Made by a program: the position numbers and the translations under genes. The notes below the pieces were generated by a model. That model searched no databases, was not told the origin of the DNA, and saw nothing but the letters and a program-made list of their open reading frames with translations. A stretch of DNA of 64,000 bases from Marsupella aquatica (taxonomy: Eukaryota; Plantae; Marchantiophyta), in assembly GCA_973895155.1 (NCBI GenBank), contig OZ316893.1, positions 18,073,836-18,137,835 of the forward strand, in the 5' to 3' direction. The stretch's first letter is position 1. Every line of letters begins with the position of its first letter. Positions 4,338 to 64,000 of this stretch are shown piece after piece.

Positions 4338-4401
4338 TATAGTAGCACTAAAATTAGAAGTTGGTAAGGCTGATTGAGTGGCAAAATATCGGCCACCCAA
4401 A

Positions 4402-15917: not shown

Positions 15918-16207
15918 TCCTTACTTTTCTCCCCTGATTCTACTGTGCAGGATGCTGAGGGCTGGGTGACTCCAGGACGGAAGCTAACTCGGGAGCAAAA
16001 TCGCTCCAGCGCTGCGCTCTCTGTCCCTGTGGTGGAGGTGCAGCCTATTGCTAAACGGGATCCCCCGCCTATCCTTACGGGTGGTGCGGTGGGGGTGGTT
16101 GGTGGGAATGCTGCCCCCTCTGACCTGCTGAATATTGAGGCGTAATTTTGTCTATTTGTTGCTTCTCCTGAAGCTGCTTTGCTGGCCCCCTGGAGAAGTG
16201 GAGTGAT

Positions 16208-29518: not shown

Positions 29519-29734
29519 GAAATCATGTCCTTTATCCTCTTGCACCTGTTTTGGACTTCCCATTTACTATTATATATATATGGCCTTTGGGCTCATTTTG
29601 GAGTAATAAGGTTTTAGCCCATGCATTTACTTTAATTCTTAATGTCTTGAATGAATGGTGTTAAGTCTATTTTAATTTGTTGTACTTGGTCAAATATACA
29701 TGAAGAGGTTTTTTGGTTGTAATGTGCATAGAAT

Positions 29735-34720: not shown

Positions 34721-35636
34721 CAGACGACCTCAACAGGCGACCAGAGGCCCAGAGAGCCCCTTTAGTGTCCAATCAAATACTTTGGTCACTCATGACCAAG
34801 TGCCAACAAACAAAGTTGGCCAACAGTCAAAGTCTATTGCCAAAATGAATCCACCCATCCCGCCTGCCCAACCAAACAGTGCAGGAAAATTTTGGATTTT
34901 TTGTGTCACTGTCGCATTTAGCTCTACCTAAGACAACCCCCAAGGACAGTCTACATGAATTGTGGGAGTAAATGTTATTTTGATGTTTCACTCCAAAAAC
35001 AAGCGTGCACAAAGGCCCAAACACACAAACTTATGATGAGTGAAGATCGGAAAAAAAGCAAATATGCCTAAAAGCCAACACAAAAAATTTATGTTTTGCT
35101 CACTTCAAGTGCGTGTAGTCATTCGGCGTTATTACAAGGAAATGGTTGGGAAAGGAACACCCTCTATATAGGAGGGAAGGTGTTCCTTGGTAGTCACATC
35201 AAGATCTTCCTTTGAGTGTTATGATAGTGGTGGCCCAACCTGCCACATCCAGGATAGTTGAGCTTGTAGTGGTACCTGGGGGTACAGACATTCAAGCTCA
35301 TCACCACCTTGGGAGGCACAAATCCTAGTAGTGGCCAAACCCTACCCAAGCCGGAAGCGGTGATCAGCCCAGCATCCCGCCCAGCATCTTTGCTTTCTTC
35401 CCTGACCCCATGTGGAATGGCAAAAAGAAGCATTGGAGTGGAAATGGCAGATTTTCAAACATTTTAACCTTACTTGAAGCTTCTTTTGGTCTATCCGTCA
35501 CCCTTTAACCCATTTTAAGCCTCAAAGGAACGTTATGGAAGAAAGTTAAGAAGTTTGAGTTTGGAAGGAAGAATCGCTTCGGACAAACAATCGCTTGAAC
35601 ATTGCAAAATCCGTTTAGACTTTCGGCAACAACTTT

Positions 35637-43000: not shown

Positions 43001-45227
43001 CAAATCCTGCCTGCTTTGCTACACTCGCTCGACAGACCAACTCTTTCATCAATAACCAACCTACACCCCGCAGACACTTGGCCATTTTCCTTTTCCTCCC
43101 CTGAACCTTCATCGCGCGCGTCACCGTTTCATCCTCATGACCCTTATGAATTCGAATCCTCCCAGGCCGCCACATGTCACTTCCACAATAAAAGTCTCAA
43201 TTTTCTTTAACCTAAGCTCCAACTTTCACCCTTTTATTCCTCTTTTGTCTCACTAACCTTCATCTCAAGTTCAGTTAACTCTTTGTTTCTTTCTTTCACA
43301 AACAGAGAACTATAACATTCTGAGTCGGACAAAAGCAAGTCGACTAGATCCAGCACACTCCACTTCAATTGTCAAACATTTTTCCCGATGACAACGTCAA
43401 CATGCGCGGGGGCCGGGGCAGTTACATCCAGCCCTGGGGACGTAGTGTTGGAAGGGGTTGGAGTGTCCTCCTACAGCAATGTCCGGTTCTCCGGAATAGC
43501 CACCGGTGGGTCTTTGGGAGACCCGGGCTCGAGTAAGGCCTCCGCTGTACCGACTTCTGTACTTGGCCCGGCCTGTTGGATCACATCTACGGTTGCGATA
43601 ACCGACCCATCCGGTACCTCCTCGGTTACAACTACAGCTACTTGTGGAGGTGGGGTGGGTGAAGCCTGCGTGTCCGCTGGACTTCGGGCCTCGGGTTGGG
43701 GCCGTCTCTCCAAGGCCGAGAAAACCACCTAGCTGGGACCAGCTTTGTAACGTTGACACGGGGAAGGGTTCGTCGATCAAACCGAGCGTACCACTCGAGA
43801 ATGATCTCGATGTGGCTAGTGAAATACGCCTTCCCGCCAATGTATAGCGTCTTCCTTTGCCGCTCCATCTCTTCATGGAATTTCTTAGCGAAGTACGACG
43901 CCCACTTCCTAGGTCGATAGTTCTCGACTTGGATAACCTGGGCAGCGGAGATCTCCCCCCGGGGTTCCATCATGTGGAGGGCGTACCTTTGGAACTCCAG
44001 TCGCTCAGCTATCTCGGGGATGAGGCAGGTCCTCATCACGAACCCGTTGTCCACTGCTCCCTCTGAGGGAAAACTCAAGGATTGGTACTTGGCTCCCTTG
44101 CCCCCGGGAGCCCGTGATTTGACTCGATGGTCACCTTCGGGTAATCCGAAGATCATCTTGAGCCGTTCTTCCGTGAGGGACATATTCCTTCCCTGCAACC
44201 GAGTATGTTGACGTGCGTCATCATAATTCTTGATGAATTCCGTCATGTCCTCCCCGTAGTACCTGCAAGTGTTCCAGGGGAGAGAGGCGAGGTGCTCGAA
44301 TCCCTGAGTCTTCAGGTACACCGCATGCTTGGGATGGAGGATGTTTTTATGCACGTTTTCCCCCATGCGGTGCATTGTCACCTTGGCCACGGCTACCGTG
44401 GCCAATGGTAACCCGGATGCAGCGGCGGGTTCCTTCCTCTTCTTCCCCCGTGACTGGCTCGGGGAGGGTGACACCTCCCCATCCTCTCGATCGGGCATAG
44501 GTAGTGCTACCGCCGTTAGTATTGGGCCCGGGGCGGCCACGGTCACCATGTTGTCTGCTGGAGCCACTCCTTGGGTCCGAGCATGGGGAGGGGATGATGT
44601 AGTGTCGGCCCCCTGAGTGTTTGCTCCTCTGGGCCGCCTGAGCAAGGGTGGGGTAGCCTTGTCGTCGTTGCTAAGGTCCACAGCGTTGATGACGGAGCGT
44701 ACTTGTACTGGCAGGGCGATCGGCGGTGGGGGTTGGCTAGGCTGAGGCTGAGACTGAGACTGAAGCTGAGCCTGAGCCTGAGTCTGCGTTGGTGCGGGTA
44801 CAAGTATGGGGTCGACTGGGCCGGCGCCGGCGGTTGAGGGTCTAGTTCCCATGAAGCTCTGCAGGTGCTGGTAGAAGTTCTCCGAAGCAAGTGCAGACGG
44901 CCTTGTCGAACGGGTAGTGCTGGACTCGCTGTTGATGATAGCCCGAACCTGAGTAGGGATGTGGTCGAAGTGATGTCGTTGCAAGTCGATCGTACCCGGG
45001 ATATTGAAGACCTCGTCCGGAAGCCGAAGCAATGCTTCCCAAAAACCGATATATTTGTCTCCGTTGAAGAAGTACCCAGATACCTCTGCTGGTCGGTAAA
45101 GCTCGCTCTGAGACGGGTAGTCAAAGTTAAGGATATAGTGGTGTCGTCCGGCTAGGCGGATGGCTCTCTCGTACTTGCGTTCAATTTTGTATCGGTGCGG
45201 GTTGGCGTGTTTCAATGAGTCGGCCAA
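40059..45227 (-). pseudogene. Family-B LTR protein (PMD-like + linker + coiled coil), split by the insertion at 40808-43393
   Basis: ORF 43638-45227, frameshift into 43471-43728, resumption near 40800, TAG at 40260-40262 and in-frame extension to 40059; aligns with the family-C LTR protein. Confidence 0.82.
40808..43393. mobile_element. Nested 2586-bp insertion with TGTC..GACA ends and a 4-bp TSD; type unresolved
   Basis: ACGT at 40804-40807 and 43394-43397; removal restores colinearity with about 4920-5020; interior strongly pyrimidine-rich on the plus strand. Confidence 0.75.
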
Positions 45228-48016
45228 GTGTCTTCCGGTAGAGAGGAACTACGTCCAGAATTGAATGGCCAAACAAGAGAGGATCGTGTGTGACATTCAG
45301 AGGAGATAGCAGTGGCGACTAAGAGCGAACGAGAGAGCTGGGGTCGAAGTTGGCGCGTGGACTGATGGACTGGTGCACTACAAAGGGTCGGCTCCCTTTT
45401 TATACCTTGAGGGCTTGTCGATCCCTCGACATCTCCTCGTTGCCTATAGGCTGAACCGTTCACGCTTGTAGTGTACCGGCCACTCCGCCGGTCTAAGTCA
45501 GCATGTGTTAGTGGCCGCTTCCCTAAGTTCGTTATACGGACCCGAGGGAGGGGCCCCTCCACGCTCGCAACCCGGGCGTGCGAATGATGACACACCGCCA
45601 GTCCGAACATGAATTCCCCTTATTGACTAATGATTTCCTACTCATAATGGTTACCTAAATACTGTCGTTATGCTAATAATAGCGGCCTAAGATACCCCTA
45701 ACACTCTTGCTAAGCGCGGTCCAGACTGAATTACTCATTACTCGCTGTACCGGCGGCGTCACAACGACAATCACCATCATTGCAAAGGCAAGGGAGAAGG
45801 TAAGAAGAAGAAATTAAATTGCAAGTGAAATTCATCAATGTCTTAAGAAGAACGAATTGGCCCACAATTGAAGCATACAACTAGTAAGCAGCAGATAGGA
45901 AGAGACTTACCAAGAGAAGAGAATGTGCGACATGCCAAGTGCATATGGGCCAGGATTACGTCATCACAAAGTTTTGCTAGAGTTGCTTTCTCCAATTTCT
46001 TCTGGCAAAGAACTTAAGATAGATGAAGCAAATCATCTCATCAAGTCATACTGTCACTGTAGTTCAGCTTGCCAAATCTTGCAACTCCGGTATGCATCAC
46101 CCTTGCCATGGTGTAAGACTCTTGAGGGTACTTGCAAGACGGAGACCATCTTCAGAACCTGAGAGATCATGTAAAGGAAATTAGACATAGTAACCTTAAA
46201 GACAGGAACTCAAAATGAAGCATCCTCTTATAACTCAACCACTACACAATACTAGAAACAAGTTGGCTACTTAGAAAGAGACCGTGAAAACATTTTATTG
46301 ACAACTTCAGCTCCATGGCAGTGTTTATCTGCCTCAATTCCTTCCCAGCCCCAGCTAGGAACACATCAATAGACAAGAGACTTTGCTGCAATGGATGGGA
46401 GTAACAGACGGGGAGAACAAGACACCATTGCTAATCAAGCGAATGTAATAATCATAGGCTATGATTTTAAGGCATCCTTCACAATCAAGGAATGGACAAC
46501 AAAGGTAGGCTCAACATACAACATACTAATGCTTCCAATCTTATCTCAGAGAAAGTATGGCATTGAGCATAGCCCTAGTTCATTTGTGTAGGTATCCAAT
46601 CCTGGATGCCAGTAGCAGAGCGTCAACCTCACAGATAAAAATTCATATTGAATTACTAGCCTTCTGCATTTACATTTGCAAGCATTTTAATTGGGAGGGA
46701 CATTGTCACAACAATCCTTATCCGTGAGTGTTCTCAGAGAAAGCCTTGTGTAAAACAAGAGAAAACTTTCACCACTTTCAAGTTGAAATGAATTAAAATG
46801 TCCAAAAGACGATGTGCCAGGGTATGATTAGTCCATGTAAGTGTAGCTTACTTTGAGAGTGTACGTAGCGGCTCTAAATGTGTCCTGCCCTACCTTTCCC
46901 GGTGCCTCAATTCCTCTCTTGACATAGCTCAACGTCCTACAAGCTCTTGATCTGTACATTGTTCTTCACCCTTGACCAGCACATTCAAGTCTTGCCATTG
47001 ATTCTTCACTTTTATGCCTGAATTCCTCTCTTTGTCCTGGTCATCCCCCCACCAATACATTTTTGTTTTGCCATCGGCAACTCACTTGCAGCATTGAATG
47101 AGCACAATATTGAATCATCTCGATCCAATCTCTCAAGATCCTTCTCGACTGAATCTGGATTGATTGACTACTTTTGAAACCTGATAATGGTGGTAGAGGA
47201 AACCACAAAGCGTGAATCTGGATTGACTCCCTTTGAAACCTGCTAATGTTGGCAGAGCATATCACACAAAGCGAGAAGCACCAGCCCCGCTGTGCCAAAA
47301 GATGTGGAAAGTAGAGTACCTTTTGTCAATAAACCTTGTATCCACACCGTCCACATTATCCAAAATTTAGAATGAACGGATCAGATCTTTCGATAGTCCT
47401 GACCTTTAAAATGATAAAAGGAATAGGAAGGACTTTTAGGAAGAATTCCCGACTCCTTTCCATTTGCAATTTCTGATTACCAAAAAATTCAAAAAGTTCA
47501 TATGGAGCTACCAGGTTCTTCATCATGTTACTAGGTATTTGGAGATGCAAAGAAATCTTAAAATTACTTTTTTGAAGATGTCCTGGTATGAATGGCCCTT
47601 ATTGAGCCCTAAATTCTTGTTCTTTTCTTTCCTGCTCTTTCAAATTAATGACTTTTTATGCTCCACTTTCACATGACATCAAGTGCTATCTTTATGTGCA
47701 TGCCCTCAAAAATTCACTGGGAAAACATTAAGGGTTGGAGTCCTTTCTGGACATATGGTATTGTGACTTTTTGTGTGACAAGTCCTGAAATATATCCTTG
47801 CAAGGAGATACAGGAAACCTTAGAGCTTTCAAACATCATATGGCTTACTTAAGATTATAAGGCTATGATATGGTTTCTATGTCCAACACATCAAACAAAA
47901 AAATCACCAATCCAATCCTTCAAAATGTTTCCTTGAAAACATTCATATTACAACAATTTTGGGTGTGACACTCCCTTTCAGTCCTCCGATTGTGAATGAG
48001 GCCTCAGAGATTCCGA

Positions 48017-49475: not shown

Positions 49476-50463
49476 ATCGTGCAACGATATCGCCTGTGTA
49501 GCAATTTGCAGAACTTGCATGTCGACCTCTGCGTTTTGTTGAAGGAATAGAACTTTGAATGTTGCTGTTTTGGTAGCGGATGCGGGCTGCTGCTGATTAG
49601 AGCGCGGAGGCACTATCGCCTGCGTGTTTGCGAAGGGGAACGACTCGGGATTGTTGCCCATTTTTCGAGGGTTGGATCGCGGATTTGCTATGACAGGGCA
49701 GTGCACACTGTCTGTTGCATTTCTGTGAAGGAAACTCGAGGCCAAAGTGTGGATGTTGCCAAATCTGGAAGTTGGGTCCGGCGTAGCAGTTTAGGGTTTA
49801 GGGTTACTCGGGACAAGGGGCGGAGCAGGAGCGAGCGGGCTGATTTTGGAGCGGCCAATTTGGTGCATAACTACAAGTGAGAAGTCACCCATCCCAAAGC
49901 TATTCCTTCCCCATGCGCTTAACTATGTGGTTCTTAAGTGCTCTTGTGTACACACACTCCTTTCCACTGTGATGTTAATGGAATGAGCACTTAGGCATTT
50001 TATACACATTCTAGTTTGTTTAGGTTGCCATTTTGGGCCAAATCATAAGCTCCCTTAAGGTTTTTGATGCTTTTGAATCCATCTAGATGCATGGATTGAA
50101 CCAATTGTGCATGGATCCTTAGCTACGACATTGAACATTGAGAGACCTATTATGAAGGCCCCACATTGAACATTATAAACATTGTTTGATTGATGTATGA
50201 TCACTATTGATGTGGAGAGTTATTGTGGATCTCTTCTTGTTGATTGGATCCTCTCCACATATGCTTCCTATTTATGCGCCATGTTAGTTTGGCGTGGGCA
50301 CTTGATTCTATAGGAGTGATCCGGGTTTGCAACCGGACATTCTAGTTGTGCTACGTATTTCTCTCCTGGTGATGTTGGAGTGATGCCCAACACACCATGG
50401 TGAGTGCTTGTGTTGTTGATAGGGACAGATTGCCCTTAGGGTTAGCATATAGATTAGGTTAGG

Positions 50464-52121
50464 TTGGTCACCACGGATTCTTCTGGTGCTGCTAGGTTAC
50501 CCAATGGACGACGGACCGGTTTCACTCGGAGTGGGGCGCAATTTCGGCCAGCAGCATTGGTAGCAGTCAACAGTGCAGCTTCAGACAGTGATTTCGACGA
50601 GGACTCAGTGACCAGTTCTCCTCGTCATCAGGTGGTTGCACCTTTGTTGTGGGATATGGACGAGATATACGGGGCTACAAAAGGTCCACGACGATACTCT
50701 GGTGCAGTTGGCACGATTGATCTAGATGACTTCATCCAAGAGTTTGATACGTGGTGCGATATGCAGACATTGCGTAATGCCACATTGTTTACCCCTTTCA
50801 TGGCATGGAAGGGATTATTTCAGCATTTGGAGGGGCCACCCATGGATGACTACCATGAGTTTTGGAAGGCTCATTTGGTTGAGATTGAGGCATGGAGGTA
50901 GCATTGGTTGCCTAATTACGTGTCCATCACTTATGGCACTAGTGCGGCTACCCAACCCATTGCCACAACTGTTGCTTCTTCTAGCAACACTAGCCAGAGT
51001 GGCACACCATCCACCAGTAGCACTCTAGTAGCATCCACTGCTACTCCTGCCGGTGTGATTGTGATAGGGACTGGAGTTGCGCCAACATTTAATCCTGTGG
51101 TGGAATTCTTTGAGGTACTGAAGCAGAACTATCAGGGTGTAAGAACTGATAAGTTGAAGGGTCTCCAGGAGTTTCAGCGCAAGACTAGAGAGAGTCTGCG
51201 TGAGGCATACACTCGTATGCGCAGATTGATCACTGTCACCAAGGGAGTGATAGAGGCTTAGCCAGTCCAGTTTTGGTATGCAATTCTGGACAGAGAATTG
51301 CAACACAGGGTGAGAGATGTCACTCTGCTTAGGGATGCAGATCCCACATTAGTAGTTGTTTTTACATTTTTTGAGCGCATTGAGCTCAATATGGTGAATG
51401 AGAAGGTGGTGACTTCCGGATTTTCCAAGGAAGCACCAAAGGCTGCATCTACATCCACACCACAGCCTATTGCACGGAAGAGCCAGAGAGAGAAGCCTAT
51501 TGCATGAGAGTCTACCAGCCAAAGACCTGTGCCCTCTTGGACAGTAGTCAGGATGTTGGACCTGTGGTGGGGATCATGGACAGAGATATTGCCCTGATCA
51601 TAGAGGATCAGGTGGAGCATCAGTGTGATCACTGTGGAGCTCCTGGACACACCAAGGATAGGTGTTTCTCACTCCATCCTGAGTTACGGAGAGGAGGATC
51701 CCATACACATGATCAGGGAAGAGGAGGAGGAGGTAGAGGTGGTGGACGTGGTCGTGGCATGCCACATGCAGGGAGACAGGGAGGTGACGCTACCTTTGCT
51801 GTAACCACAGATCCAAAGGATGCTAAGATTGCTCAATTGGAACAACAACTAGCTACCATGGCTAGTTCCCAGGTGAGACCTACTTCTAGTGATGGGGCAT
51901 CTACATCCTATGGACCTTCCACATCCCATGGTCCTTCCACATCTTATGGAGCTGATGGAGACCTTGCCACCATGGGATTCATGTGTGGCACTGCACATAG
52001 TGATGCATCAGCAGCTTTGACACGTGGGGCAGCCAAAGCTCTTGAGCCTTGAGGAGCAGTAGTGGAGCTAGATCCACAAAGGGGGGATGCACGTCGGCAG
52101 ACAAAGCTTTCTCAGTCTTTT
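50464..52121 (+). pseudogene. gag: Gag-like gene of a third retroelement, interrupted by element C
   Basis: RYSGAVGTIDLDDFIQEFDTWC, FQRKTRESLREAYTRM, CDHCGAPGHTKDRC knuckle and RGG tract; in-frame stops and a frameshift near 51500. Confidence 0.72.
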
Positions 52122-55100
52122 TGTGGTGCGTCCCATGGCTCCCTAAACCCAAGAAACCCCCCAGCTCAAGCCGATTCCCGCAGGTTTCGTGCTTGGCGAG
52201 GCCGTTTCCGTGGCTTAGCGACATGGGACGCTGCTAACCTTCTACTACTACTATTAACATTTTACACACATATACTGGACAGATCCTTCATCGGGTCATG
52301 AGATACGTAGCCGGCCTAATATAGGCCTTCCCCTGTCTTCCCCTGTCTTCCTGTTAGGTATGTTTGGATTCCGCCGCCGGAATGATCCCCAATAGGCTTG
52401 GTTAAGCCGCTAAGACCTCTCTCAGCTCGACACATCCAACTCTCACTCCCCTGCTTACTTTCCTTCCTTCTGTTGATGTGGGCACTCTTCACACAAGTTA
52501 ATGCGACACACAAATAGCAAAATGACTCATTCTGACTGAGTCATACCATGCACTTGCCATACAAACAGTACATCTCATACACAAGTTCTGCGAACTAAGC
52601 CGTGAGGCCAACTCTATTCAGCTCTTAGGCATGAGGAAACATGAATATACACAAGGGTCACTGTATGACTAACCGAGAGCTTCTCGTACTACTTGATCCC
52701 AGCCCGGCTGGTGCAAACTAAAAACTTGCTAAAGAAGAGGCCCTGAGCTCCCCGCTGCCCAGGTACTTATCCTGGTAGTGGATCCGCCATTCTTTGCATC
52801 GTAAGCCTAATCTACCTGACAGTAATCTACTTGCCCGAATCTACCTATGTACAGCAAGGCAGGAGCACAAGTGTTGCTCCTACCAGTGGGACCGCAATCC
52901 CACTAAGCTAAGTGTCAGGGCCGCTCCTGGTTCTGATCCTAATCCTAAACGTGGAGACCCGCGCCCGCCCTGCCCACTCACGCCTCCTCCCTCCACGTCC
53001 GCCCTCCCTAAAAGGAACGGCGCCCTTGCACCGTCACGACACCGGTGGTGGATCCTCAATGGACGCCCCCAACACTTCCTCCTCAGCCACTGCCGTTGGC
53101 CCGCCTACTGACAGATTACCTGCCCTTGACCGAGTCAACTCTCCATCGGCCTGACTGGGTCCACCTTCGGCTTCAGCCTCGACACCGGCCTCGGCAATAC
53201 CCACGGCTTCGGCCTCAGCCACTCCCACGGCTTCGGCTTCAGCCACTCCCTCGGCTTCGGCCTCAGCCACCCCCACGGCTTCGGCCTCCCCTTCCCCTAG
53301 GGTAGTTGGATCCTTAGCCGTGACCCTGTCTGGGGTCGGTGCTGGGTCTACCTCCTTGATCACCACGGCCTGTGAAGTCGTATTACTCCTTGACCCTGGA
53401 GGTTTCCGCTTCTTCTTCGTTGGTGGCTCGGCAGCTGGTCCCTTCCCCTTCCCACTTACTTCCGGCACTGGTGCAGTTGACGCGGCTTGTCCTTCGGCAA
53501 TTACCACCCCTGGTAACTGGTTTGTCCCAACGGGAGATGGACCTGCTGCAGCTAAGCATTTAAATACTGCGGTTTGTTTCTTCAGCCGCTCAGTTTGGTT
53601 GTCGGCCCGCCGCTGTAGGTTCTCCATCTTCCTCGTGATTTCCTCCAACTCCTCTTGGGTTTCATCCAGGTCCTTACGTGCCCCCTCCAGCTCGTTTTTG
53701 GCCTCCTCCTGCTCCCTGTGGGCTTCCTCCAATTCCTTCTTCAAGGTAGCCCTCTCCTCCTGGGTTGCTCTTAGCTCCTTGTCGAGCTCTGCAATGATGA
53801 CAGACTCCATCTGGTTCATCTTGGCGTAAGTCTGTTCGAGCATCTCGTCCTTCTCCCTTAGGTCGGCCTTGAAGCTGGCCGTCAGGGACGCAAGCTCCTG
53901 CTACAGCGCCATAATCCCTTGATAGGATTTCCCTAACTCGACCTCCTTCTGCTCAAGGGCTCCGCGGATTTTCTCGAGCTCCCCTTTCAACGCCCATTCC
54001 TTTCTTTGGGTCTCCGCCATGGCCCGGCTGTTGGCTGTTATGTGGGCCTCCTCTGTATTCTTCAGCTCTTGCTTCCACTTTTCCCTCTCTTTGATCGTGT
54101 CGGCCAACTCTTCCTGCGTCTGAGTCAGTTTATCCTTGATATTCTGATTATCAGCCTGCGCCGCGTCCAACTGCCCCTGCATGATGTTCAGTTCATGTCG
54201 TTTAATCCGCAGTTCATCTTGGGCTTTCTTGGCCGCCCTTAGATCTTCAATCTCGGCTCCCATCCTCCTAAGCCGCCGAATGACCTCGTCCTTCTTGCTT
54301 CTCTCTAAAGCCACCGCTTCTTCTAATTGGTGCTTCTCCAACTGCTCCCTATGGAAAAAGGGTCCTACCTCCAACTCCTCTCCAAAGATGCCGAGCGCAA
54401 GTTCCCCACACATCTCACCATACTCCATGGCTCTATTCTTAGCGTAGGTGGAGTAAGTAGAAGTGATCGGCATCGCCCATCGTGGCCTCTGCTCCCAAGC
54501 CGTCCTGCGGATCTCTTCAATCGTGGCTAGAGGTTTGCTTCCTTTTTCGGCTAGCCGCCTGATGTCCTCCGGCCAATCTCCTCCTGGTAAATCCTTTTCC
54601 TTAGCCAGGGCGGCCTCTTCCTCCTGCTTGATTCGCTCCTGAAATTCCTGCACCGTCTGTTTTATGCCGTCGAAGCTCGGGGGAGCAACATCTGGTGGGG
54701 GAGACTCAGGGCTACTCTGCTGGTTGGGGTCCCCTCGCACTACCCTTGGAAGTGTGGGGACAAACCGGCCACAGGTCCTTACTCCTGGAACGTGATGGTC
54801 CGACCCATAGCCGGAATTATCATGGCTACAGTCCTCCACTGCCTCCTCTACCTCTTGGACGTCCGGCTTCTCCCTCTCCTCTTCGTCGGTAGGAGCTTCA
54901 GGCAATTCTGCCTCAGATTCGGAGCTTGAGGTTCCCACGTACATTCGAACACCTGGCTTGGATTCCGGCCTGATTCTCTCCTTGTCTCCAGCAAAGGGGT
55001 TTTCTCTTGTGAGCCGGTGTAGGCCTACCTCTGTAGTAGTGTCCTGCATTGTTGCCGTTGCCGTTGTTGTTGCCGATGCCGATTTCTTTTCTTTCTCCAG

Positions 55101-56796
55101 TAGTTTCAGTAGACTCTGCATGCCTGGTTGCTGCATCGGCAAGTCTTCCTTCCTGGGCCTAAACACCTGCTCGATCGTAGGACTAACAGGTGGTTGAGGC
55201 TTCTCAGCCAACGGCCTCGGCGTTGGAGCTTCCTCGGGTGCCCTTACTTGCAGGGGAAGTACCGGGGCAAAAGTCTGACTTCTGGCATACTGGCACAACA
55301 GCGGCATGTGATAGCCAAGCCGCGACACGCTCCCCATGCCGATTACCTGCTGCTCCTCCTTTAAGATCTTCTTCAATTGGTTGAGGAGGTACCCGTTGTA
55401 GTCCCGGCTTGGGTCTGGCCTTTCTGCCAGATAGACCTGTGCCTTGCCGATCTCTGCCCTCGGTAAGTTACAATGCATGGTCACCCGCAAGAAGTCGATC
55501 ATCTCTCCTATGTGCGGGTTGGTGCAGGTGTTCCGGAAGAAGCCATTCTTTGTTGATGGCCCGGGGAACGACCGGAACTCCTTGTCAGGCAAGGTCTTCC
55601 TGGTATCAACTTTGGTCTTATTGCCTATCGGCAGGCCAAACACTTCGGCAATTACCTTGGGAGTAAGATAGAAATCCTTCCCATATATCCTCGTGCAATT
55701 GGTCTCGGGTTCCCATGACCCCACGAATTCTAATAGGTCTGACTCCGGTACCTCCGGCTTCAGCCATGGTAATCTTACAAAGGCCTCCAAGCCGGATCCG
55801 GCCATGAAGCCTTGGTACTTCTTGGTCTGCATGGCCGTAAAGCATGCATCCTCCTCCTGTGCAAAATGTAGTTGCACCTCCACCGGTAGGGTTGCCGCCC
55901 AGCCCTTCCAGGTGTCATCCCTGGTTGGAATGGCCTTGATGGGATCGACCTCCTCCTCTTCGGCTTCTCCCTGCCTCCTGCTCTGCTGCTCGGCTGGCTT
56001 CTTTGGTGCCGCCGACCTCGTTCTTTTTGCCGGGGTGGCTTCATCGTTGATGGCTCCCTTCCTCTTCATCTCTGCTGCCGTGGAGGTTTCTCCTAGCACC
56101 GTTGCCTGGGTCCACCTTTCCGTGCTACCCTTTAATTCCCAGTGTATGTCGTTGCAGTTCTTGATGGCCTCTCGGATGCCGACGACGCTGTCTTTGCAAA
56201 ACAGAAGATCGTCGAGTTGATTGGAAGTAGGCGTCCACAGGAACTCGTCCTTGATGAGTTCGCCTCCTAAGAAAGCCGTCTTCTGCAGCTCCCACAATCG
56301 AGCGAGCTCCTGCCGTTCTCGAGCTGCCCTTTCTGACTCCTCGTCCTCGTAAGTCTTGATGTACTCAGTTGCCCGTTCGAACAGGCATCCCCAGAAATGT
56401 GCCGCTTGATTGACGTTGCTCATACCCTCCTTAGGTTGATCGTCGGTATCTACTCTCTCCCCGAGTGCTTGCCTAAGCAGCTGACAGTAGTTGGCCTCCC
56501 GTAGTCGTCTGCCTAGTTCGTGCTCGCAAATGAGCCACCATCTCCTGCAAGCGCTCCTTACCCCTCTCCTCTGCCGGTCCTTCTTCCCGTTGATCCTTCC
56601 TAGCCGCCGACGCTTAACGCGCCCTAACCCTAATCGGGTTTTCACCCTTAGCCTTACCTCCGGCCTCTGCCCGGGTTCCATGGTTGCCCCTAATTGTTTA
56701 TATTTTCCTTGTTTTGTCACTATACTAAGGTGTTCCTAGGGTGCCTTCCTGCTTTACCCACTTAACCGGCCGAGTGATTCCTGTCTAGGCATCACA
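52122..56796 (-). repeat. 3' LTR of element C (4675 bp)
   Basis: TGTGATGCC...GCACCACA on the minus strand; both ends coincide with the solo LTR 22488-27141; repeated from 63020. Confidence 0.94.
53034..56720 (-). CDS. LTR-encoded protein of family C (frame of about 1,200 codons; PMD-like domain + long coiled coil) with one internal TAG at 53901-53903
   Basis: ORFs 53901-56720 and 53034-53843 share a frame; the solo copy has CAG at the interrupted codon; start uncertain (ATG 56681 or 56423). Confidence 0.85.
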
Positions 56797-58584
56797 TAGC
56801 TCCCCACTTAATTGTGAAGCGTCCTCGCGAACAACTTCATCTTCGTCCATATAGTATTTCTTGAGGCGGTCATAATGGATGCGAACTGGATATACCTCTC
56901 CCGTAATGTTGGCCAATTGTACGGAGCCATTGGGGAACATCATGGTTACTCTAAAGGGTCCTAACCAGCGAGTGTAAAGCTTTCCTGGAAACCTACTATA
57001 CCTACTGTCATAAAGTAGCACAAGATCACCGGTATGAATACTAACTACTTTTAACCTTTTATCATACTGCTGCTTCATGATATTCTGTCTATATTCTACT
57101 CTCTCGGCTGAAATCATTCTCGCTTCCTCTAAAGCTTCTAACCTATATTCTCGCTCCTTTAGGCTCTCCTCCGCTGAGGCTCTTTCCTCAATTGTAACTT
57201 GAAATGTCGGTATCTCAAGTTGCATGGGTACCAGGGCTTCTTGTCCAAAGGTTAAGAAGAAGGGTGTATGACCGGTAGTGGATTTATAGGCAAGATTGTA
57301 AGCAAAAACAGCAGCAAACAATTTATCATCCCAATCGAGTTTGTTCTGAGCTACTGTCTTGTTCAATATCTTTCCTATGATCCCGTTTGCTCGTTCTGTC
57401 AACCCGTTTGCCTTTGGATGGTAGGGAGTAGTAGTCCTATGTTTAACTAAATACTGCTCAATTAAACGACTAATTATATCATTCAAAAAATGGGTTCCTC
57501 TATCACTAACTAATTCTAGGGGTGCTCCATACCTGGTGAAGATCTGCTCATACATGAATCTAGCCGTAGTAATTGCATCATCCTTCGTTGTTGGTCTGGC
57601 CTCTACCCATTTAGTTGCATAATCCGTAGCCAAGATTATGTACTTGTTCCGTCGAGGGTGGGTCAGTGGTTTCAGAGGTCCAATGTAATCAATACCCCAC
57701 TTCTCGAATGGTGCCAGAGGTAGAATAGGGTGCAGTGGATGCCTGGTGGACGCCCTTGGTCCTCCCGCTTGTTGACAAGGATCGCATTGTTTGATAAACT
57801 GATAGACATCTTTGTGCAAGGTGGGCCACCAGTAACCGGCATTTAATATCTTCTTAGACGTGGTTACTGGGGCAAAATGTCCTCCGGCCTCCTCTCCATG
57901 CATGGCCCGTAGGACTCGTTTTACCTCTCTCTTTTCCAAACACCTTTGAATCGTGCCGTTGATTCCATGCTTGTGCAGTATGCCTTTAATGCACTGATAC
58001 TGTCTGACCTTCCGCACAAAGACTGCGGCTTGCTCTCGGCTTAATCCTGGCTGTAATCTGGAAGTGCTGAGAAATTGTAAAATCTCAGGGTACCATGTAC
58101 CAGCTATTTCCACAATGAATAGCTCCTCGTCGGGGAATCGATCATCGATGCAATCCATGGCAGGTTTACCTGTGATCCTTGAAAAGAAGTCGGCATTGGC
58201 ATGTAACTTTCCCGGCTTGATCCTCAGCTCATAGTCAAACTCCTGTAATAGCAAAATCCATCTTGCTACTCTGCCTGTAAGGTCCGGCTTATTGACTAGG
58301 TACTTCAAACTTTCATGATCAGTATGAAAGATTACCTTGTACCCTAGTAAATAATGCCTAAACTTTTTACAAGAATAAATGACTCCTAATGCTTCTCTTT
58401 CCGTGGTAGAGTAGTTCCGTTCGGCATCGGCAAGCTGACGGCTTGCGAAGTATATGGGATGGTCCCTTCCTTTCTCATCCAACTGACTTAGTACTGAGCC
58501 AATACAGAAGCCCGAGACATCTACAAAAACATGAAAATCTTTGTTCCAGTCCGGTGCTATCATGACTGGGGCCTCTACTAACAT
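56785..58584 (-). CDS. pol: Pol of element C: RNase H + integrase
   Basis: DVSGFCIGSVLSQ, ERNYSTTEREAL, TDH; HHCC (MHGEEAGGHF..CDPCQ), WGIDYIGP, SDRGTHF, YHPKANGLTER, WLGPF; the stop lies inside the 3' LTR. Confidence 0.95.
   Translation of the reverse strand: MLVEAPVMIAPDWNKDFHVFVDVSGFCIGSVLSQLDEKGRDHPIYFASRQLADAERNYSTTEREALGVIYSCKKFRHYLLGYKVIFHTDHESLKYLVNKPDLTGRVARWILLLQEFDYELRIKPGKLHANADFFSRITGKPAMDCIDDRFPDEELFIVEIAGTWYPEILQFLSTSRLQPGLSREQAAVFVRKVRQYQCIKGILHKHGINGTIQRCLEKREVKRVLRAMHGEEAGGHFAPVTTSKKILNAGYWWPTLHKDVYQFIKQCDPCQQAGGPRASTRHPLHPILPLAPFEKWGIDYIGPLKPLTHPRRNKYIILATDYATKWVEARPTTKDDAITTARFMYEQIFTRYGAPLELVSDRGTHFLNDIISRLIEQYLVKHRTTTPYHPKANGLTERANGIIGKILNKTVAQNKLDWDDKLFAAVFAYNLAYKSTTGHTPFFLTFGQEALVPMQLEIPTFQVTIEERASAEESLKEREYRLEALEEARMISAERVEYRQNIMKQQYDKRLKVVSIHTGDLVLLYDSRYSRFPGKLYTRWLGPFRVTMMFPNGSVQLANITGEVYPVRIHYDRLKKYYMDEDEVVREDASQLSGELCDA
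56799..56810 (-). promoter_or_regulatory. 3' polypurine tract
   Basis: TAAGTGGGGAGC lies 2 nt upstream of the 3' LTR start (56796). Confidence 0.75.
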
Positions 58585-60051
58585 CTACTTCAATTCTACC
58601 ACCGCTGTGACTCGTTCGGGTGTGGGTTCGAAGTCTGCTCCTGCCTTGAGCATATTGGTTAATGGTAAAGCTAGCTTGGCAAAATCCTTGATGAACCGGC
58701 GATAGTAACCAATGCATCCCAAGAAGGATCTTACATCCTTTATGTTCTTAGGTTGCATGATATCTAGCCATACTGCTAGCTTACCTTTGTCAATCTCAAT
58801 GCCCTTCCTTGATACTTTGTGACCTAGTAGCACCCCCTCGGTTATTGCAAAAAAACATTTATCTGGGTGTAACTTGAGACCCACCTCTCTACATCTCATG
58901 AAGGTTTTCCTGAGGTATTTAGCATGTTTCGATGCCTTCCCGAATACTGCAAAGTCATCAATGAAGATTTCCATGAACTTTCTCAAGTAATCATGAAAAA
59001 TGTTCACCATTAATCGTTGGAACATAGCTGGTGCGTTGCAGAGTCCAAACGGCATACGATTGAAGACATAGATCCCCCATTCCGTGATGAAGGCCGTCTT
59101 GATTTGGTCTTCCTGCCGAATCCTGATTTGGTTATAACCAGAGTATCCATCCATGAATGAATATAGTTCATGACTGGCTACCATGTCTAGTACCATATCA
59201 GTAAATGGTAAAGGAAAATGGTCTTTTAATGTTGCTTCATTCAGCTTCCTGTAATCCTGACAAACCCGGATCTTGGGTTTACCATCGGGTCCAGCTTTCT
59301 TGGGAACTATCACAATTGGAGACACCCAGTCTGAATGCAAGACTGGAGTGATGAATCCAGCTTCCACTAGTTTGTCGATTTCTGTTTTGACCAGCAGGGA
59401 ATACTTCGGGTTCATCCTTCGAATTGGTTGTCGAAATGATTTGGCTCCTAACATGAGATCAATTCGATGTTCCCCTAGTGTTGGATCTACTCCCTTTAGA
59501 TCTTGGTGACTCCATGCAAACACATCCTGAAATTCAATCAATAAGTCACTGATCTCTTTCTCGAGCTCAGGTGCTAGGTTTCTCCCTAAGTTCAGTTCTC
59601 TTCCCTCTCCTAAGTCGAGCTTCCGATATTGCCGTGCTTGGATCATATTAATCTGCTTCTTCAAATTCGGGTCCAGTTCGGCTTCCAGTCTCTCTAATCT
59701 CATACCTCCATAAACTGGGATCTCGGCTGGACTAGCCGAGTCGGTCCCTTCCTTGGTGTCCATAGATTGTCCCCTTACCGGTCTATTCGGTTTTGAATTA
59801 GTGGTCGGCTCCCCTTCCTGCCTTGGCTCTAGATCGTGTCTGTCCATCTCATCCACCTCTTGCTCCTGAGAGTTAGGCCGCTGTGCTCTCTCGGCTTCTA
59901 ATAGGGCCTCAATTTGTTCTGCCCTCGTAATCGGCTTGTATGCCGATCCCTTGGTATTTAATTCCTTGCCGATGATCGATGGCGTTGTGGACCCCGTCGG
60001 CTCTGCCACAACGCCTGCAGAAAATCCACTGTCCCTGCTACTGCTCCCCAC
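58585..60051 (-). CDS. pol: Pol of element C: reverse transcriptase, in frame with RH-IN across a TAG at 58585-58587
   Basis: DVFAWSH, WVSPIVIVPKK, DYRKLN, DGYSGYNQI, MPFGLCNAP, FIDD, FLGCIGYYRRFI. Confidence 0.95.
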   Translation of the reverse strand: MGSSSRDSGFSAGVVAEPTGSTTPSIIGKELNTKGSAYKPITRAEQIEALLEAERAQRPNSQEQEVDEMDRHDLEPRQEGEPTTNSKPNRPVRGQSMDTKEGTDSASPAEIPVYGGMRLERLEAELDPNLKKQINMIQARQYRKLDLGEGRELNLGRNLAPELEKEISDLLIEFQDVFAWSHQDLKGVDPTLGEHRIDLMLGAKSFRQPIRRMNPKYSLLVKTEIDKLVEAGFITPVLHSDWVSPIVIVPKKAGPDGKPKIRVCQDYRKLNEATLKDHFPLPFTDMVLDMVASHELYSFMDGYSGYNQIRIRQEDQIKTAFITEWGIYVFNRMPFGLCNAPAMFQRLMVNIFHDYLRKFMEIFIDDFAVFGKASKHAKYLRKTFMRCREVGLKLHPDKCFFAITEGVLLGHKVSRKGIEIDKGKLAVWLDIMQPKNIKDVRSFLGCIGYYRRFIKDFAKLALPLTNMLKAGADFEPTPERVTAVVELK

Positions 60052-60870
60052 TTAGCCGTTTCATCCAATTGGTCTACATCCTTTACTTCCTCCGGAATTG
60101 CAGCTAAAAAGGTGGATTCTATTGTAAAGCAGTCCTCGACCTCTTCGTCTTCTTCTTCCAAGTCACCTTCCATTGGTTCTTGCCATAATCCGCTGGGGGG
60201 TACCTCTGGTCCAAAGACACCTTCTTCGGTTAGGTTAGTGAGGCATTCTAACCAACGTACTTCATCGGCTGACTCCAGTCCACTATCGTACCCATCTACT
60301 TCCCTTATGCTTTTCCTACGGTCATCCTTAGTGTCCCAGGATACCGTGATAGAGGGGGTCACGAAAGTGAACTGCTTTTTACCCCAATCTTCTATTACCT
60401 CGGCTAGGTACAGCCATGGCCTACCAATCAATAGCCGGAATGACGTAGGATTTACCGGCTTCATTACTACATAGTTAATGCTAAAGAAGATACCTCCTAT
60501 CTCTGTCTTGATGCCGGTTAACACTCCCGTCGGAATGACCTGATATCCATTGGCCATGTTCAACACTCTTCCAGTCATCTCCGGTGTTAGACCCCACCCT
60601 TTTGCTGTTGAATCAATCATAATACATACCCCTGATCCTCCATCGATGGGTACCCGTAGTAATAATTCTCCTTGAATCATTAATGGTAATGCTGGGGCTC
60701 CTTGATCTTCTTCTATCATTAGTACGTCGGATCTGGTTGCTACCTTGGGTAATCTCGGCTTGCCGAGAATAGCCTTCCTTAATTGCTTCCGGAAGTACGG
60801 ACTATTTTTCAATAGTTGACCTACTGTTGCCGAGACTCTAGATTCTAGTACATCTTTAGCCAGGTCATAG
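59958..60870 (-). CDS. Aspartic protease region of element C
   Basis: IDGGSGVCIM and LLIGRPWL; the frame extends upstream as YDLAKDVLESRVSATVGQLL, homologous to YDIVEDVRNHPAQITIGELL in element A. Confidence 0.9.
59968..60027 (-). promoter_or_regulatory. Candidate programmed -1 ribosomal frameshift signal (slippery heptamer + H-type pseudoknot)
   Basis: G_GAT_TTT (60027-60021) in protease-frame phase, 5-nt spacer, 10-bp perfect stem (60015-60006 / 59990-59981), loop GCCGA complementary to TCGGC (59972-59968); the RT frame is -1. Confidence 0.72.
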
Positions 60871-62950
60871 GAACAATTGGCTTCTCTTCTGGTGGTGTTT
60901 CCGTCTTGGATTCGGCCAGTTTTGCCACGCTAGTCTCCACAGCTGTTGGGTCTTCCGAAGCAAACAATGCTTTTGCTCGTTTTACATCCTTGGCAATGGC
61001 TTCGGTATTCTCCAGGGTTTCTAATTCTCTTAGTTGTTCCTTAACACTAGCCGTAACAGAGGGGTAGAACAACTTAGGATGATCTCGATTGAAGTCGCTA
61101 TCTTGTGAAGGATTGGTTTCACTGGTGGGCTCATGGCTTACCTGTATTGCCGGAGCCCTCCCTTCTCCTTCTGTTGATGTTGACGAAGAGTCGATCCTTT
61201 CCTCCGTAACCTTCCCTTTATTTTTGGCCAGCCCATCCCACCTTTCCTTCCTTCTGGTAGATCGAGTAGAGACCCGGTAGCAATCATGATCTAAATCCTC
61301 CTCTGAGAAGGTTGATAGGGCTTCGGCCTCATCATCAGATGGTACGAACTCTGCCTCGGCATCCTCTTGCCATCCTAGTTCGATGTGGTTGATTTGAACT
61401 CCTCCGGGGGTAGTACCTGGCGGTAAGATCTTGATCGGCAAAAGCTTATGATTTGCGGCCAGGCCTGCCAACCAAGTAGGACATTGCCCTAGCATATGAC
61501 CTTCCTGTCGGCATCCCATACATAGCTGAGCTGGTTGTCCATCACCCTGTTTGCGTGCATTCGGGCATTCTCTAGCAAAATGGCCAGGTTGACCACAATT
61601 ATAGCACGCCGCAAATCTTTGCACATTCGGCCTAGGAGGTACTGACGGGTTCTGAATAATCCGAGGATACATCTCTCCTGGATTGTTCCTTAATCCTGAC
61701 CACAGAGATGCAGGTCTGTTGGATAGGTCTCGTGCTCCAGTCTCACTGATGCCGAAAACACTATCAGCGGCATCTCCCAAAAAGTACTCTACTTCTCCCT
61801 GACATGGTCTGATCTCGGCCACATGCCGAACATGATTAGTATTAAACTTAGGACACGCATCTTTATGGTGTCCGGTTTTATAACATAAGGCACACCATAC
61901 AGAGCTATCCTCCTGTACTACCTTCTTCTTTGGTTTTACCTCTGCAATGATAGCCTTAAGTTGCTCGGTAAGGGCTACGATGTTATCTGGTGGCTTAGCC
62001 TCCATCTTGACTTTCGTCTTCCCTCTCCTTCTGCCCTTCCTTTTCCTAGTTTTTTCTTCTTCAGAACTAGAAGATGACTCACTCTTGCTACTCCCACTAT
62101 CCGAGCTTGACTTATCACTTCTAGACTTCTTGGAATGTTTCTTCTTCTTATCTTTTTTCTTATGGGGTGATCCCTCCTCTGATGAGGAACTCTCAGACTT
62201 AAGCTGTTTCTTCCGGCTTGTGATATCTGCATTAATGTATAATTGAATATCCTTAATTGCTTCGGCTAAAGTCTCCGGGTTCTCCTTCCTAATTGCAAAA
62301 CTCATCTTCTGTGGCAAAGCATTCACCAACCATTGAAGTTGCATACCTTCAGATGCATTGGTCTTTGTACGTCTTACCAGTTTCTGAAAGCGTTGCAAGA
62401 ACTTCCTGAAGGATTTGTTCTCCTTGAACCGAAGTTGTCCCAACTTCAGCACTGCTAGTTCTGAAGTTCCAATGGGTCGAAACTCCTTAACAAAGAGTGT
62501 TTTGAAGATATCCCAGATGGCTTGATCTTCCACATCTAATGCTCTGTACCAAGGCCTAGCCTCACCCTTGAACAGGCCGGGAAGAATCTGCATCTTGATG
62601 GCCGATTCTCCATTTGCTGCAGCGGTTCCCTCGAAATCATCCAACCATTTGTCCGGATCCTCATCTCCTCTCCCATGAAATGCCTTGTAATGTATGCGCG
62701 ACCGCTGGCTCAATCTGGTCCCTGGCCTCTCGTCTGGCCGTGCCTCTGGTTCCCCCATGTCGGTTGGAGACTCACTTCTCCTTACCGACTCTTCTTCTGG
62801 TATGTCTTCTTCGATGCCACTTCCAGTTTCGGAGCTACCAGCTCTTTCTGCCCCTCTCAGTCGCTGTGTATCATGCCACCCGGCGAGCTGCTGCAGTCGA
62901 GCTCTCTCCCGTTGAATCACTCTTTCTTCCCTCGGCGTAAGGTCAGTCAT
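60845..62950 (-). CDS. gag: Gag of element C
   Basis: FHGRGDEDPDKWL, EARPWY, WLVNALP and three CCHC knuckles (CALCYKTGHHKDAC, CYNCGQPGHFAREC, CMGCRQEGHMLGQC). Confidence 0.93.
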   Translation of the reverse strand: MTDLTPREERVIQRERARLQQLAGWHDTQRLRGAERAGSSETGSGIEEDIPEEESVRRSESPTDMGEPEARPDERPGTRLSQRSRIHYKAFHGRGDEDPDKWLDDFEGTAAANGESAIKMQILPGLFKGEARPWYRALDVEDQAIWDIFKTLFVKEFRPIGTSELAVLKLGQLRFKENKSFRKFLQRFQKLVRRTKTNASEGMQLQWLVNALPQKMSFAIRKENPETLAEAIKDIQLYINADITSRKKQLKSESSSSEEGSPHKKKDKKKKHSKKSRSDKSSSDSGSSKSESSSSSEEEKTRKRKGRRRGKTKVKMEAKPPDNIVALTEQLKAIIAEVKPKKKVVQEDSSVWCALCYKTGHHKDACPKFNTNHVRHVAEIRPCQGEVEYFLGDAADSVFGISETGARDLSNRPASLWSGLRNNPGEMYPRIIQNPSVPPRPNVQRFAACYNCGQPGHFARECPNARKQGDGQPAQLCMGCRQEGHMLGQCPTWLAGLAANHKLLPIKILPPGTTPGGVQINHIELGWQEDAEAEFVPSDDEAEALSTFSEEDLDHDCYRVSTRSTRRKERWDGLAKNKGKVTEERIDSSSTSTEGEGRAPAIQVSHEPTSETNPSQDSDFNRDHPKLFYPSVTASVKEQLRELETLENTEAIAKDVKRAKALFASEDPTAVETSVAKLAESKTETPPEEKPIVPMTWLKMY

Positions 62951-62996
62951 TACCTACGCTTCCGTTCTAACTTCATATCTCACGGCTTAAGAAATG

Positions 62997-63015
62997 CCCC
63001 CTCCATCTAGCGCCA
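62997..63015 (-). promoter_or_regulatory. Primer binding site of element C (tRNA not identified)
   Basis: TGGCGCTAGATGGAGGGGG follows the LTR end ..CCACA after a TTTT spacer. Confidence 0.8.
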
Positions 63016-63019
63016 AAAA

Positions 63020-64000
63020 TGTGGTGCGTCCCATGGCTCCCTAAACCCAAGAAACCCCCTAGCTCAAGCCGATTCCCGCAGGTTTCGTGCTTGGCGAGGC
63101 CGTTTCCGCGGCTTAGCGGCATGGGACGCTGCTAACCTTCTACTACTACTATTAACATTTTACACACATATACTGGACAGATCCTTCATCGGGTCATGAG
63201 ATACGTAGCCGGCCTAATATAGGCCTTCCCCTGTCTTCCCTTGTCTTCCTGTTAGGTATGTTTGGATTCCGCCGCCGGAATGATCCCCAATAGGCTTGGT
63301 TAAGCCGCTAAGACCTCTCTCAGCTCGACACATCCAACTCTCACTCCCCTGCTTACTTTCCTTCCTTCTGTTGATGTGGGCACTCTTCACACAAGTTAAT
63401 GCGACACACAAATAGCAAAATGACTCATTCTGACTGAGTCATACCATGCACTTGCCATACAAACAGTACATCTCATACACAAGTTCTGCGAACTAAGCCG
63501 TGAGGCCAACTCTATTCAGCTCTTAGGCATGAGGAAACATGAATATACACAAGGGTCACTGTATGACTAACCGAGAGCTTCTCGTACTACTTGATCCCAG
63601 CCCGGCTGGTGCAAACTAAAAACTTGCTAAAGAAGAGGCCCTGAGCTCCCCGCTGCCCAGGTACTTATCCTGGTAGTGGATCCGCCATTCTTTGCATCGT
63701 AAGCCTAATCTACCTGACAGTAATCTACTTGCCCGAATCTACCTATGTACAGCAAGGCAGGAGCACAAGTGTTGCTCCTACCAGTGGGACCGCAATCCCA
63801 CTAAGCTAAGTGTCAGGGCCGCTCCTGGTTCTGATCCTAATCCTAAACGTGGAGATCCGCGCCCGCCCTGCCCACTCACGCCTCCTCCCTCCACGTCCGC
63901 CCTCCCTAAAAGGAACGGCGCCCTTGCACCGTCACGACACCGGTGGTGGATCCTCAATGGACGCCCCCAACACTTCCTCCTCAGCCACTGCCGTTGGCCC
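63020..64000 (-). repeat. 5' LTR of element C (partial)
   Basis: Matches 52122-53102 with only about five substitutions visible by eye, all transitions. Confidence 0.95.

Follow-up and report, generated by a model that had tools for sequence, protein, structure and literature searches.

Can a long terminal repeat (LTR) of a plant retrotransposon itself carry a gene, and what would the encoded protein do? This question was raised by a 64,000-nucleotide stretch of the liverwort Marsupella aquatica (contig OZ316893.1, positions 18,073,836 to 18,137,835; hereafter the window), which contains a minus-strand Ty3/Gypsy element, element B, and copies of a second LTR family, family A. The extra open reading frames (ORFs) of plant elements have been placed in the internal region (PMC7264820; PMC3485330; PMC11728184). 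In element B, positions 52122–56796 were confirmed to be a true LTR, and a long ORF lies wholly inside it. The parts of the element and of the solo LTR of its family are as follows.

52122–56796, minus strand: 3′ LTR of element B, 4,675 bp, TG...CA, defined by self-comparison and boundary sequences.
56797–56809, minus strand: polypurine tract (PPT), overlapping the end of the integrase frame.
56785–62953, minus strand: gag, protease, reverse transcriptase (RT), RNase H and integrase in four overlapping frames, interrupted by a single in-frame stop; a second RNase H and a chromodomain are absent.
62999–63015, minus strand: primer-binding site (PBS).
63020–64000, minus strand: the 3′ portion of the 5′ LTR that falls within the window, matching the 3′ LTR at 976 of 981 bases (5 differences, 99.5%), with the last 22 ORF codons.
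22488–27141, minus strand: family B solo LTR with a decayed ORF copy; flanks match at 4 of 5 bases.
56697–56702, minus strand: TATAAA, a putative promoter element for the ORF; it lies 95 nt into the LTR, counted from the 5′ end, and is kept in the solo LTR at 27045.
52122–53033, minus strand: non-coding 3′ part of the LTR, a candidate poly(A) region by its TGTA cluster (52651–52563).

On the minus strand the LTR began with TGTGATG at 56796 and ended with CACCACA at 52122. The purine tract AAGTGGGGAG (56809–56800), followed by CTA, was directly 5′ of the LTR start, and the PBS-like 17-mer TGGCGCTAGATGGAGGG began at 63015, after the TTTT bordering the copy at 63020. Element B thus had a TG...CA direct repeat, a PPT before the 3′ copy and a PBS after the 5′ copy. 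Between the repeats, the ORF list and Pfam gave the order gag, protease, RT, RNase H, integrase, which is that of Ty3/Gypsy; the protease was called from a DGGSG motif and its position, in a frame without a Pfam match. The integrase frame had no chromodomain-sized tail and stopped ~10 nt inside the LTR. The 5′ LTR contained the final 69 nt of the ORF within the window, the position of its CTTTT target-site duplication (TSD) being outside; judging from the solo LTR, it would hold the whole gene.

The solo LTR (27141–22488) aligned with the element LTR from end to end at ~85% identity in the window self-comparison, and the two parted company exactly at the TG. Divergence was 7% in the 3′ part (52122–53033) and 15–17% elsewhere. 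The flanks of the solo copy, CTCAC and CCCAC, formed an imperfect 5-bp TSD. Among contigs of public runs over 50500–64000, the LTR was several-fold deeper than gag-pol in the two deepest of 4 runs (239–705 thousand versus 49–161 thousand in run X1), where summed contig depth was not taken as copy number and the noisy runs X3 and X6 gave no clean step. Contigs ended or joined at 56796 and 52122, and one X6 contig matched 56527–56796 and then ran into foreign DNA. The self-comparison, the TG at the solo break, the contig depth and the contig ends therefore set the LTR at 4,675 bp.

Three side observations concern this LTR. In run X2, contigs joined 56796 to 53360 and 54733 to 52122, that is, LTR ends were fused to the interior of the LTR ORF, which suggests that the element inserted into copies of its own LTR. 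Two GTAAG splice-donor-like sites (56657 and 56561, minus strand) lie between the TATA and the ATG at 56423 and are kept in both family B copies; they might mark a leader intron or a donor splicing to gag. The surroundings of element B were formed by a gag-like high-copy repeat with a CCHC motif (50458–52121, plus strand).

The ORF in the LTR and the parts of its product were assigned as follows.

53034–56423, minus strand: LTR-borne ORF, 1,129 codons from the ATG at 56423, with one in-frame stop at 53903.
56079–56423, minus strand: N-terminal domain, ~115 aa, common to family A and other relatives; ratio of nonsynonymous to synonymous divergence (dN/dS) 0.19.
55245–55886, minus strand: conserved core, ~210 aa, with a predicted VANC21/DUF1985 fold, similar to the plant mobile domain (PMD); dN/dS 0.10–0.15 between element and solo LTR.
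53586–54335, minus strand: long coiled coil, ~aa 700–950, from heptad windows; dN/dS 0.21; followed by a KKKRK motif resembling a nuclear localization signal (NLS) and an acidic repeat tail.

The reading frame was open from 56735 to 53037, with the stop at 53903 as its sole interruption. The ATG at 56423, giving a protein of 1,129 aa, was the most likely start because the stretch upstream of it (56681–56424) had a dN/dS of 1.16 and two stops in the solo copy; the N-terminal domain common to the family also begins at this Met. A start at the ATG at 56681, ~20 nt behind the TATA, was rejected as the sequence upstream of 56423 was without selection. From the ATG at 56423 the element and the solo LTR could be compared over 1,102 aligned codons, with dS 0.41 and dN 0.11. 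The dN/dS was 0.27 (95% bootstrap 0.23–0.34, p below 1e-21), or 0.40 with a transition weight of 4, and shifted-frame controls gave 1.0 and 1.4. Substitutions at codon positions 1, 2 and 3 numbered 135, 114 and 257. This codon comparison confirmed that the ORF evolved under purifying selection. Within the aligned codons the solo copy had 5 in-frame stops; it also carried several frameshifts, its breaks lying elsewhere than the one in the element.

From N to C terminus, the protein consisted of the 115-aa N-terminal domain, a basic linker, the 210-aa core, a proline/acid-rich region, the coiled coil, KKKRK and the acidic tail. Within the core, basic residues are conserved at core positions 104, 109, 111, 124, 142, 147, 156 and 192. 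The Atlas gave no usable match to the N-terminal domain. No transmembrane segment was found in the LTR proteins (top 19-residue hydropathy 0.98 in family B and 1.45 in family A), and an env-like role was rejected on this ground.

The second family offered an independent example, and its two copies in the window were as follows.

39169–45763, minus strand: family A solo LTR, TG...CA, with a perfect 5-bp TSD (ACGAC), a ~2.55-kb insertion and a homologous ORF.
4418–6580, plus strand: truncated family A LTR copy with the core end, the coiled coil and the 3′ end, ~81% identical to the solo LTR.

The family A solo LTR carried TATAAAAG at 45404, and its ORF, from ~45296 to 40060, comprised the N-terminal domain, the core (44384–43767) and the coiled coil. 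The cores of families A and B shared 27% identity (blastp E 2e-21), and their N-terminal domains scored 14.8 bits, compared with a maximum of 5.0 over 200 shuffles. Between the solo and the truncated copy, the proportion of nonsynonymous to synonymous differences (pN/pS) was 0.12–0.17 in the core end and 0.27–0.37 in the coiled coil, and 1.0–1.5 in shifted frames. Contig depth at 45763 dropped from tens of thousands to the single-copy level, while 6, 12 and 6 contigs in three of the 4 runs passed this position into mixed flanks (agreement 0.40–0.54). The majority flank was purine-rich on the ORF strand in 2 of 3 runs and looked like a PPT; an antisense orientation of the family A ORF was rejected since this purine tract lies upstream in the ORF sense. 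The TSD, the selection and the mixed flanks therefore indicated that the LTR-borne gene is a property of at least two families.

Several other features of family A were observed. The 5′ end of its LTR (TGTGACGCC) resembles that of family B (TGTGATGCC), the remaining DNA being not alignable. Both copies (40262–40060, minus strand; 5511–5712, plus strand), 19% apart, had an in-frame stop at the same codon, and 66 more well-conserved codons with a basic motif at the end followed it. Shared ancestry, a parallel mutation or read-through are possible explanations of this common stop. The ~2.55-kb insertion in the solo LTR (~40830–43380) was AT-richer and had no clear ORF. At positions 3–4439 (minus strand) a further element, belonging to the same RT clade (65% RT identity), was represented by its gag-pol, which joined the truncated family A LTR via a short duplicated stretch near 4380–4430.

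These results bear on an earlier, sequence-only reading of the window, which had proposed a 4.7-kb LTR bounded by a PBS, a PPT and a TSD-flanked solo copy. The length and all three bounds held, and the TSD of the solo copy proved imperfect. The ORF of ~1,200 codons which it placed inside the LTR is located there and is ~100 codons shorter. It was right that the two ORF copies are broken at different codons, that the TATAAA at 56702–56697 near the ORF 5′ end is conserved in the solo copy, and that the protein has a coiled coil. Its claim of selection on the protein was upheld by ratios of 0.27–0.40, far from the value of 1 that it had set against itself, and the signal recurred in family A. Its picture of the solo LTR as a promoter-plus-gene cassette stands as a description of anatomy and not of expression.

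Relatives of the gene were then sought. A word search with the ORF core retrieved none of 563 candidates, and a four-row profile found 69 relatives of the 210-aa core among 1.84 billion proteins. Fourteen of these were looked up; 5 were named, all from Calypogeia fissa. Some relatives were intact and had the same three-part build, P0191 (906 aa) and P0198 (787 aa) being examples. An RT-based scan over 6 of the 64 parts of a metagenome collection yielded 79 loci, one of which (L001) came from the close clade; the core profile had 3 weak matches among the 79 (independent E-value, iE, 0.004–0.009), L006 and L009 among them. In L001 (2310–4975), the pol stop was followed by a short purine-rich tract with TG, an array of CGGAAC-type repeated motifs, a TATA and an intact 606-codon sense ORF with the same predicted core fold and a coiled coil. 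The L001 ORF defined a distant sister family with 59 relatives, whose profile was linked to that of the window core family (hhalign probability 95.9, E 5.6e-9); among the loci it matched L001 only, and in the window it had no match at iE<0.05. The candidate PPT of L001 was not a pure purine run of 8, and its LTR boundary was only suggestive.

The best named matches of the element B RT were from Calypogeia (65–74%), Marchantia (52–61%) and Riccia (57%), and most angiosperm matches were at 46–48%. A quick, unrooted tree of 61 rows (the two window RTs and 59 of 120 database hits, those that ranked among the first 50 or bore a name, with no lineage references) placed it in one group with an unnamed RT and two from Calypogeia (SH-aLRT support 99). 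The Pfam scan met one RNase H in element B and not the additional archaeal-type RNase H (aRH) of Tat. Branches of Tat without aRH exist in liverworts (PMC13468544), and element B appears to be a non-chromovirus like these branches (the 'zero' structure, Z1/Z2). It agreed with the values given for Athila or TatII (PMC6317226) in the 5-bp TSD and in the absence of a chromodomain in the element and the families here. The polyprotein fills the internal region as reported for Phygy/Selgy, and those elements differ in their 4-bp TSDs, their tRNA-Trp or tRNA-Ala primers and the lack of an extra ORF according to PMC6317226, whereas the solo LTRs of the window had 5-bp TSDs. A survey that lists liverwort lineages gives them without detail on LTR-borne genes (PMC12885004). 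The conserved non-gag-pol ORFs of Athila, Retand, Grande, RIRE2 and Retrosat2 are also comparable, with an own promoter described in Grande; they were located either after pol, ahead of the 3′ LTR, or 5′ of gag, whereas in element B pol leads directly into the LTR, whose duplication includes the ORF. The PBS of element B is similar to the 3′ end of plant tRNA-Asn, and such a putative Asn-type PBS would fit Athila or TatII as well.

What kind of protein the gene encodes was approached through its core. In sequence searches, PF10536 (PMD) had no match in the window proteins at E≤0.1, the 944-aa ORF frame matched no Pfam family, the C-terminal part of the protein gave weak coiled-coil matches only, and a PDB sequence search with relative P0187 returned none. 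Plant clusters in the Atlas at 0.86–0.89 included DUF1985 and PMD; being below 0.9, they were leads only, and the PMD lead (0.86) was a cluster with PMD in 14% of its members. A core model from a 50-row alignment had a predicted local distance difference test score (pLDDT) of 88 and a predicted template modelling score of 0.85. Compared with 48,161 solved chains, its best match was VANC21 of Arabidopsis VANDAL21 bound to DNA (PDB 9LNK/9LNJ; Z 8.4, root-mean-square deviation (rmsd) 4.3, 211 aligned residues), and the next chain had a Z of 2.1. Foldseek placed VANC21 fifth, with a template modelling (TM) score of 0.41, while no other row shown exceeded 0.19. The independent model of the sister family (pLDDT 88) again had VANC21 as its best match (Z 6.9, rmsd 3.9, 191 aligned, next 2.6). 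Foldseek gave nothing at E≤0.001 for either model in the PDB, nor in a viral library, where the best match was unnamed (E 0.019, TM 0.32). Because of the Z gap, the residue coverage and the replication in the sister-family model, we conclude with moderate confidence that the core shares the predicted fold of the VANC21 DNA-binding domain.

The VANC domain was reported to resemble the PMD of MAIN/MAIL1, and coiled-coil oligomers were predicted for VANC (bioRxiv 2024.04.02.587720; PMC13547354). The PMD label of the sequence-only reading can therefore be kept at the level of the predicted fold, by way of VANC21, and not at the level of the PF10536 profile, which fits neither the window protein nor its relatives.

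VANC carries DUF1985, binds short motifs and strips methylation from its own family (PMC5735166). The PMD proteins MAIN/MAIL were found to sit on DNA motifs and to oppose Polycomb (bioRxiv 2024.09.27.615353), and Polycomb repressive complex 2 represses transposable elements in bryophytes (bioRxiv 2022.10.24.513474). Thus, we speculated that the LTR protein is a nuclear, sequence-specific DNA-binding anti-silencing factor made from any LTR copy, with a probability of about 45%. Its NLS-like motifs and the lack of a membrane helix were counted for this anti-silencing reading. The TATA near the LTR 5′ end and the TGTA-rich signals near the 3′ end would allow an mRNA to be made from any LTR copy, solo LTRs included. 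No RNA run appeared among the 14 public runs listed, a result that has no bearing on whether the gene is expressed. The long coiled coil would oligomerise the core protein; attached to short motifs of its own element, this protein would keep DNA methylation or Polycomb marks away. The gene probably entered the LTR through a shift of plus-strand priming to a purine tract where pol ends, by which an internal ORF would have been pulled into the repeat; the ancestral state would be the Athila/Tat arrangement, with the extra ORF between pol and the LTR. A wider proposal is that the LTRs of bryophyte Ty3/Gypsy elements are self-contained anti-silencing cassettes, in which a sequence-specific DNA-binding protein of VANC/PMD fold comes from every LTR and solo LTRs protect the family in trans, the family being an old branch of a fold ancestral to angiosperm PMD/MAIN and VANC; this was held to be doubtful.

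A number of observations weigh against an anti-silencing factor of the VANC kind. All copies of the LTR gene inside the window are broken, and the core of the window protein has a net charge of 0, while most relatives are basic. PF10536 was found in none of the 69 core relatives at E≤0.01 and in none of 39 sister-family members; DUF1985 (PF09331) appeared in 1 of the 69, itself a marginal relative, with 23 bits against a cut-off of 35, and Transposase_32 (PF20167) in 2 of the 69, under the cut-off. The Z values of 8.4 and 6.9 are in the middling range for helical folds, at 8–12% identity and an rmsd of ~4 Å. For the core model the Foldseek E-value of VANC21 was 1.9, and for the sister-family model VANC21 was outside the Foldseek rows shown. 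A PDB search with the 50-row sequence profile at E≤10 returned coiled-coil noise and no VANC21. Repeated-motif arrays, the hallmark of VANC targets, were not found in the non-coding LTR parts of families B and A; among 18 motif-array tests on six B and A regions, one was significant (TAGATTA, five times in the family B solo LTR). Finally, MAIN/MAIL1 were first described as promoting silencing (PMC5418596), and such opposite reported effects mean that the fold leaves the direction of the effect unfixed.

Three other explanations were considered. The same LTR gene with the same fold might do another nuclear job, as a trans-activator or repressor of the LTR, a MAIN-like restraint or an integration tether. 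The opposite effects within the VANC/PMD fold and the missing VANC-type arrays in families B and A speak for this, as does gene23 of Grande, an extra ORF with its own promoter whose product was described as nuclear and of unknown role (PMC7264820). Set against it, the only function-tested transposon-borne member of the fold in the published work consulted is an anti-silencing factor, and the core with a coiled coil mirrors the predicted organisation of VANC; such a job was considered possible and tentative. Rather less probable, the gene is real and its match to VANC21 a chance likeness of helical folds, the protein then having a role with RNA or particles such as export, packaging or cell-to-cell movement. 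The middling Z values, the want of a sequence-level link to VANC21, and the long coiled coil and disordered stretches would suit a chance match. Two independent models nevertheless singled out the same chain among 48,161, each more than 4 Z units ahead of the runner-up and over ~200 residues, the Atlas independently listed DUF1985 and PMD clusters, and the protein, having no transmembrane segment, is not env-like.

The remaining explanation does away with a coding LTR: the real LTR would be the last 1 kb, the ORF an internal extra ORF, and the solo copy a truncated or rearranged element. The visible 5′ LTR is indeed 981 bp only, the family B solo TSD has one mismatch, and a purine run with CGTG occurs just after the ORF stop, at 52994. 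Yet the solo copy begins at the TG following the PPT and ends at the CA preceding the PBS, the family A solo LTR encloses the whole gene within a perfect TSD, and contigs that stem from other insertions break off at 56796 and at 45763. This makes a non-coding LTR very improbable, and the anti-silencing reading was retained as the working one.

Under that reading, VANC21 is the closest known counterpart, being like the LTR protein a transposon-borne accessory protein with a globular domain and a predicted coiled coil. Its carrier is a Mutator-like DNA transposon and not a Ty3/Gypsy LTR element, the window protein has no Pfam DUF1985 match, and VANC has been described as dicot-specific, a view being that it came from captured MAIN (PMC13547354), whereas the named relatives of the LTR gene are from a liverwort. 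The PMD-A of Ogre/Tat elements is, like the LTR ORF, an extra ORF of a non-chromovirus Ty3/Gypsy, and it and the host proteins MAIN, MAIL1 and MAIL2 may be connected to it through the predicted VANC fold; the window ORF is not a Pfam PMD member, and the PMD-type extra ORFs were described as internal and not in the LTR. A link to Transposase_32 would depend on the two under-cut-off matches. Ogre elements have PMD in 57% of cases (PMC6317226), and Ogre-type LTRs share their length with element B, reaching ~5–6.5 kb (PMC6317226; PMC6431247). For a gene inside an LTR a precedent is mouse mammary tumour virus (MMTV), an animal retrovirus with an unrelated protein. The MMTV LTR is far shorter than that of element B. 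Its sag is a complete gene in the LTR (U3) and is present in both LTRs (PMC12548423).

The window contained further elements besides the LTR families. The Pfam scan gave a DNA-methylase-like frame (PF01555, E 1e-5, just under the cut-off), a NIF phosphatase-like frame and a SET-domain frame, which lie upstream of frames read by eye as CACTA-transposase-like; the family B solo LTR is inserted among them.

20804–22006, 27221–27844, 28931–29518 and 29732–34931, plus strand: methylase-, NIF-, SET- and CACTA-like frames, from Pfam and reading by eye.

The methylase-, NIF phosphatase- and SET-like frames are possibly cargo of a large DNA transposon. An L1-type long interspersed nuclear element at 13887–20130 (plus strand) had an ORF1 with DUF4283 and a zinc knuckle (Pfam) and a broken endonuclease-RT ORF2 (by eye).

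Extra ORFs including PMD and ~5-kb LTRs were already reported in plant non-chromoviruses, as was an LTR gene in MMTV. Full-text searches, with most subscription journals, Repbase and REXdb outside their reach, listed neither an LTR-borne gene in a plant Ty3 element nor a VANC-fold protein on a retrotransposon. Plant LTRs are treated as non-coding and surveys put extra ORFs internally, so a whole lineage of genes located in LTRs can go unnoticed or be taken for host genes; those core relatives that have a named source are annotated as 'unnamed protein products' in a liverwort genome.

The description of PMD-A came from angiosperms, and whether PMD originated in hosts or in Gypsy elements was stated to be an open question (PMC5418596). 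A family of LTR-borne VANC-fold proteins would bear on this question, as well as on the view of VANC as captured MAIN. Sequence-specific anti-silencing in plants was, in the published work consulted, established for DNA transposons (VANC). What extra ORFs do is a question of long standing, and a VANC-fold protein on a retrotransposon would let it be tested with a single small domain whose structure is well predicted. Each element has its LTR gene twice, and the gene outlasts solo-LTR recombination, so that this route of deletion has a different outcome. If the anti-silencing reading is true, every lone LTR would hold a probable anti-silencing gene complete in itself, although solo formation is the main way by which the host deletes such elements.

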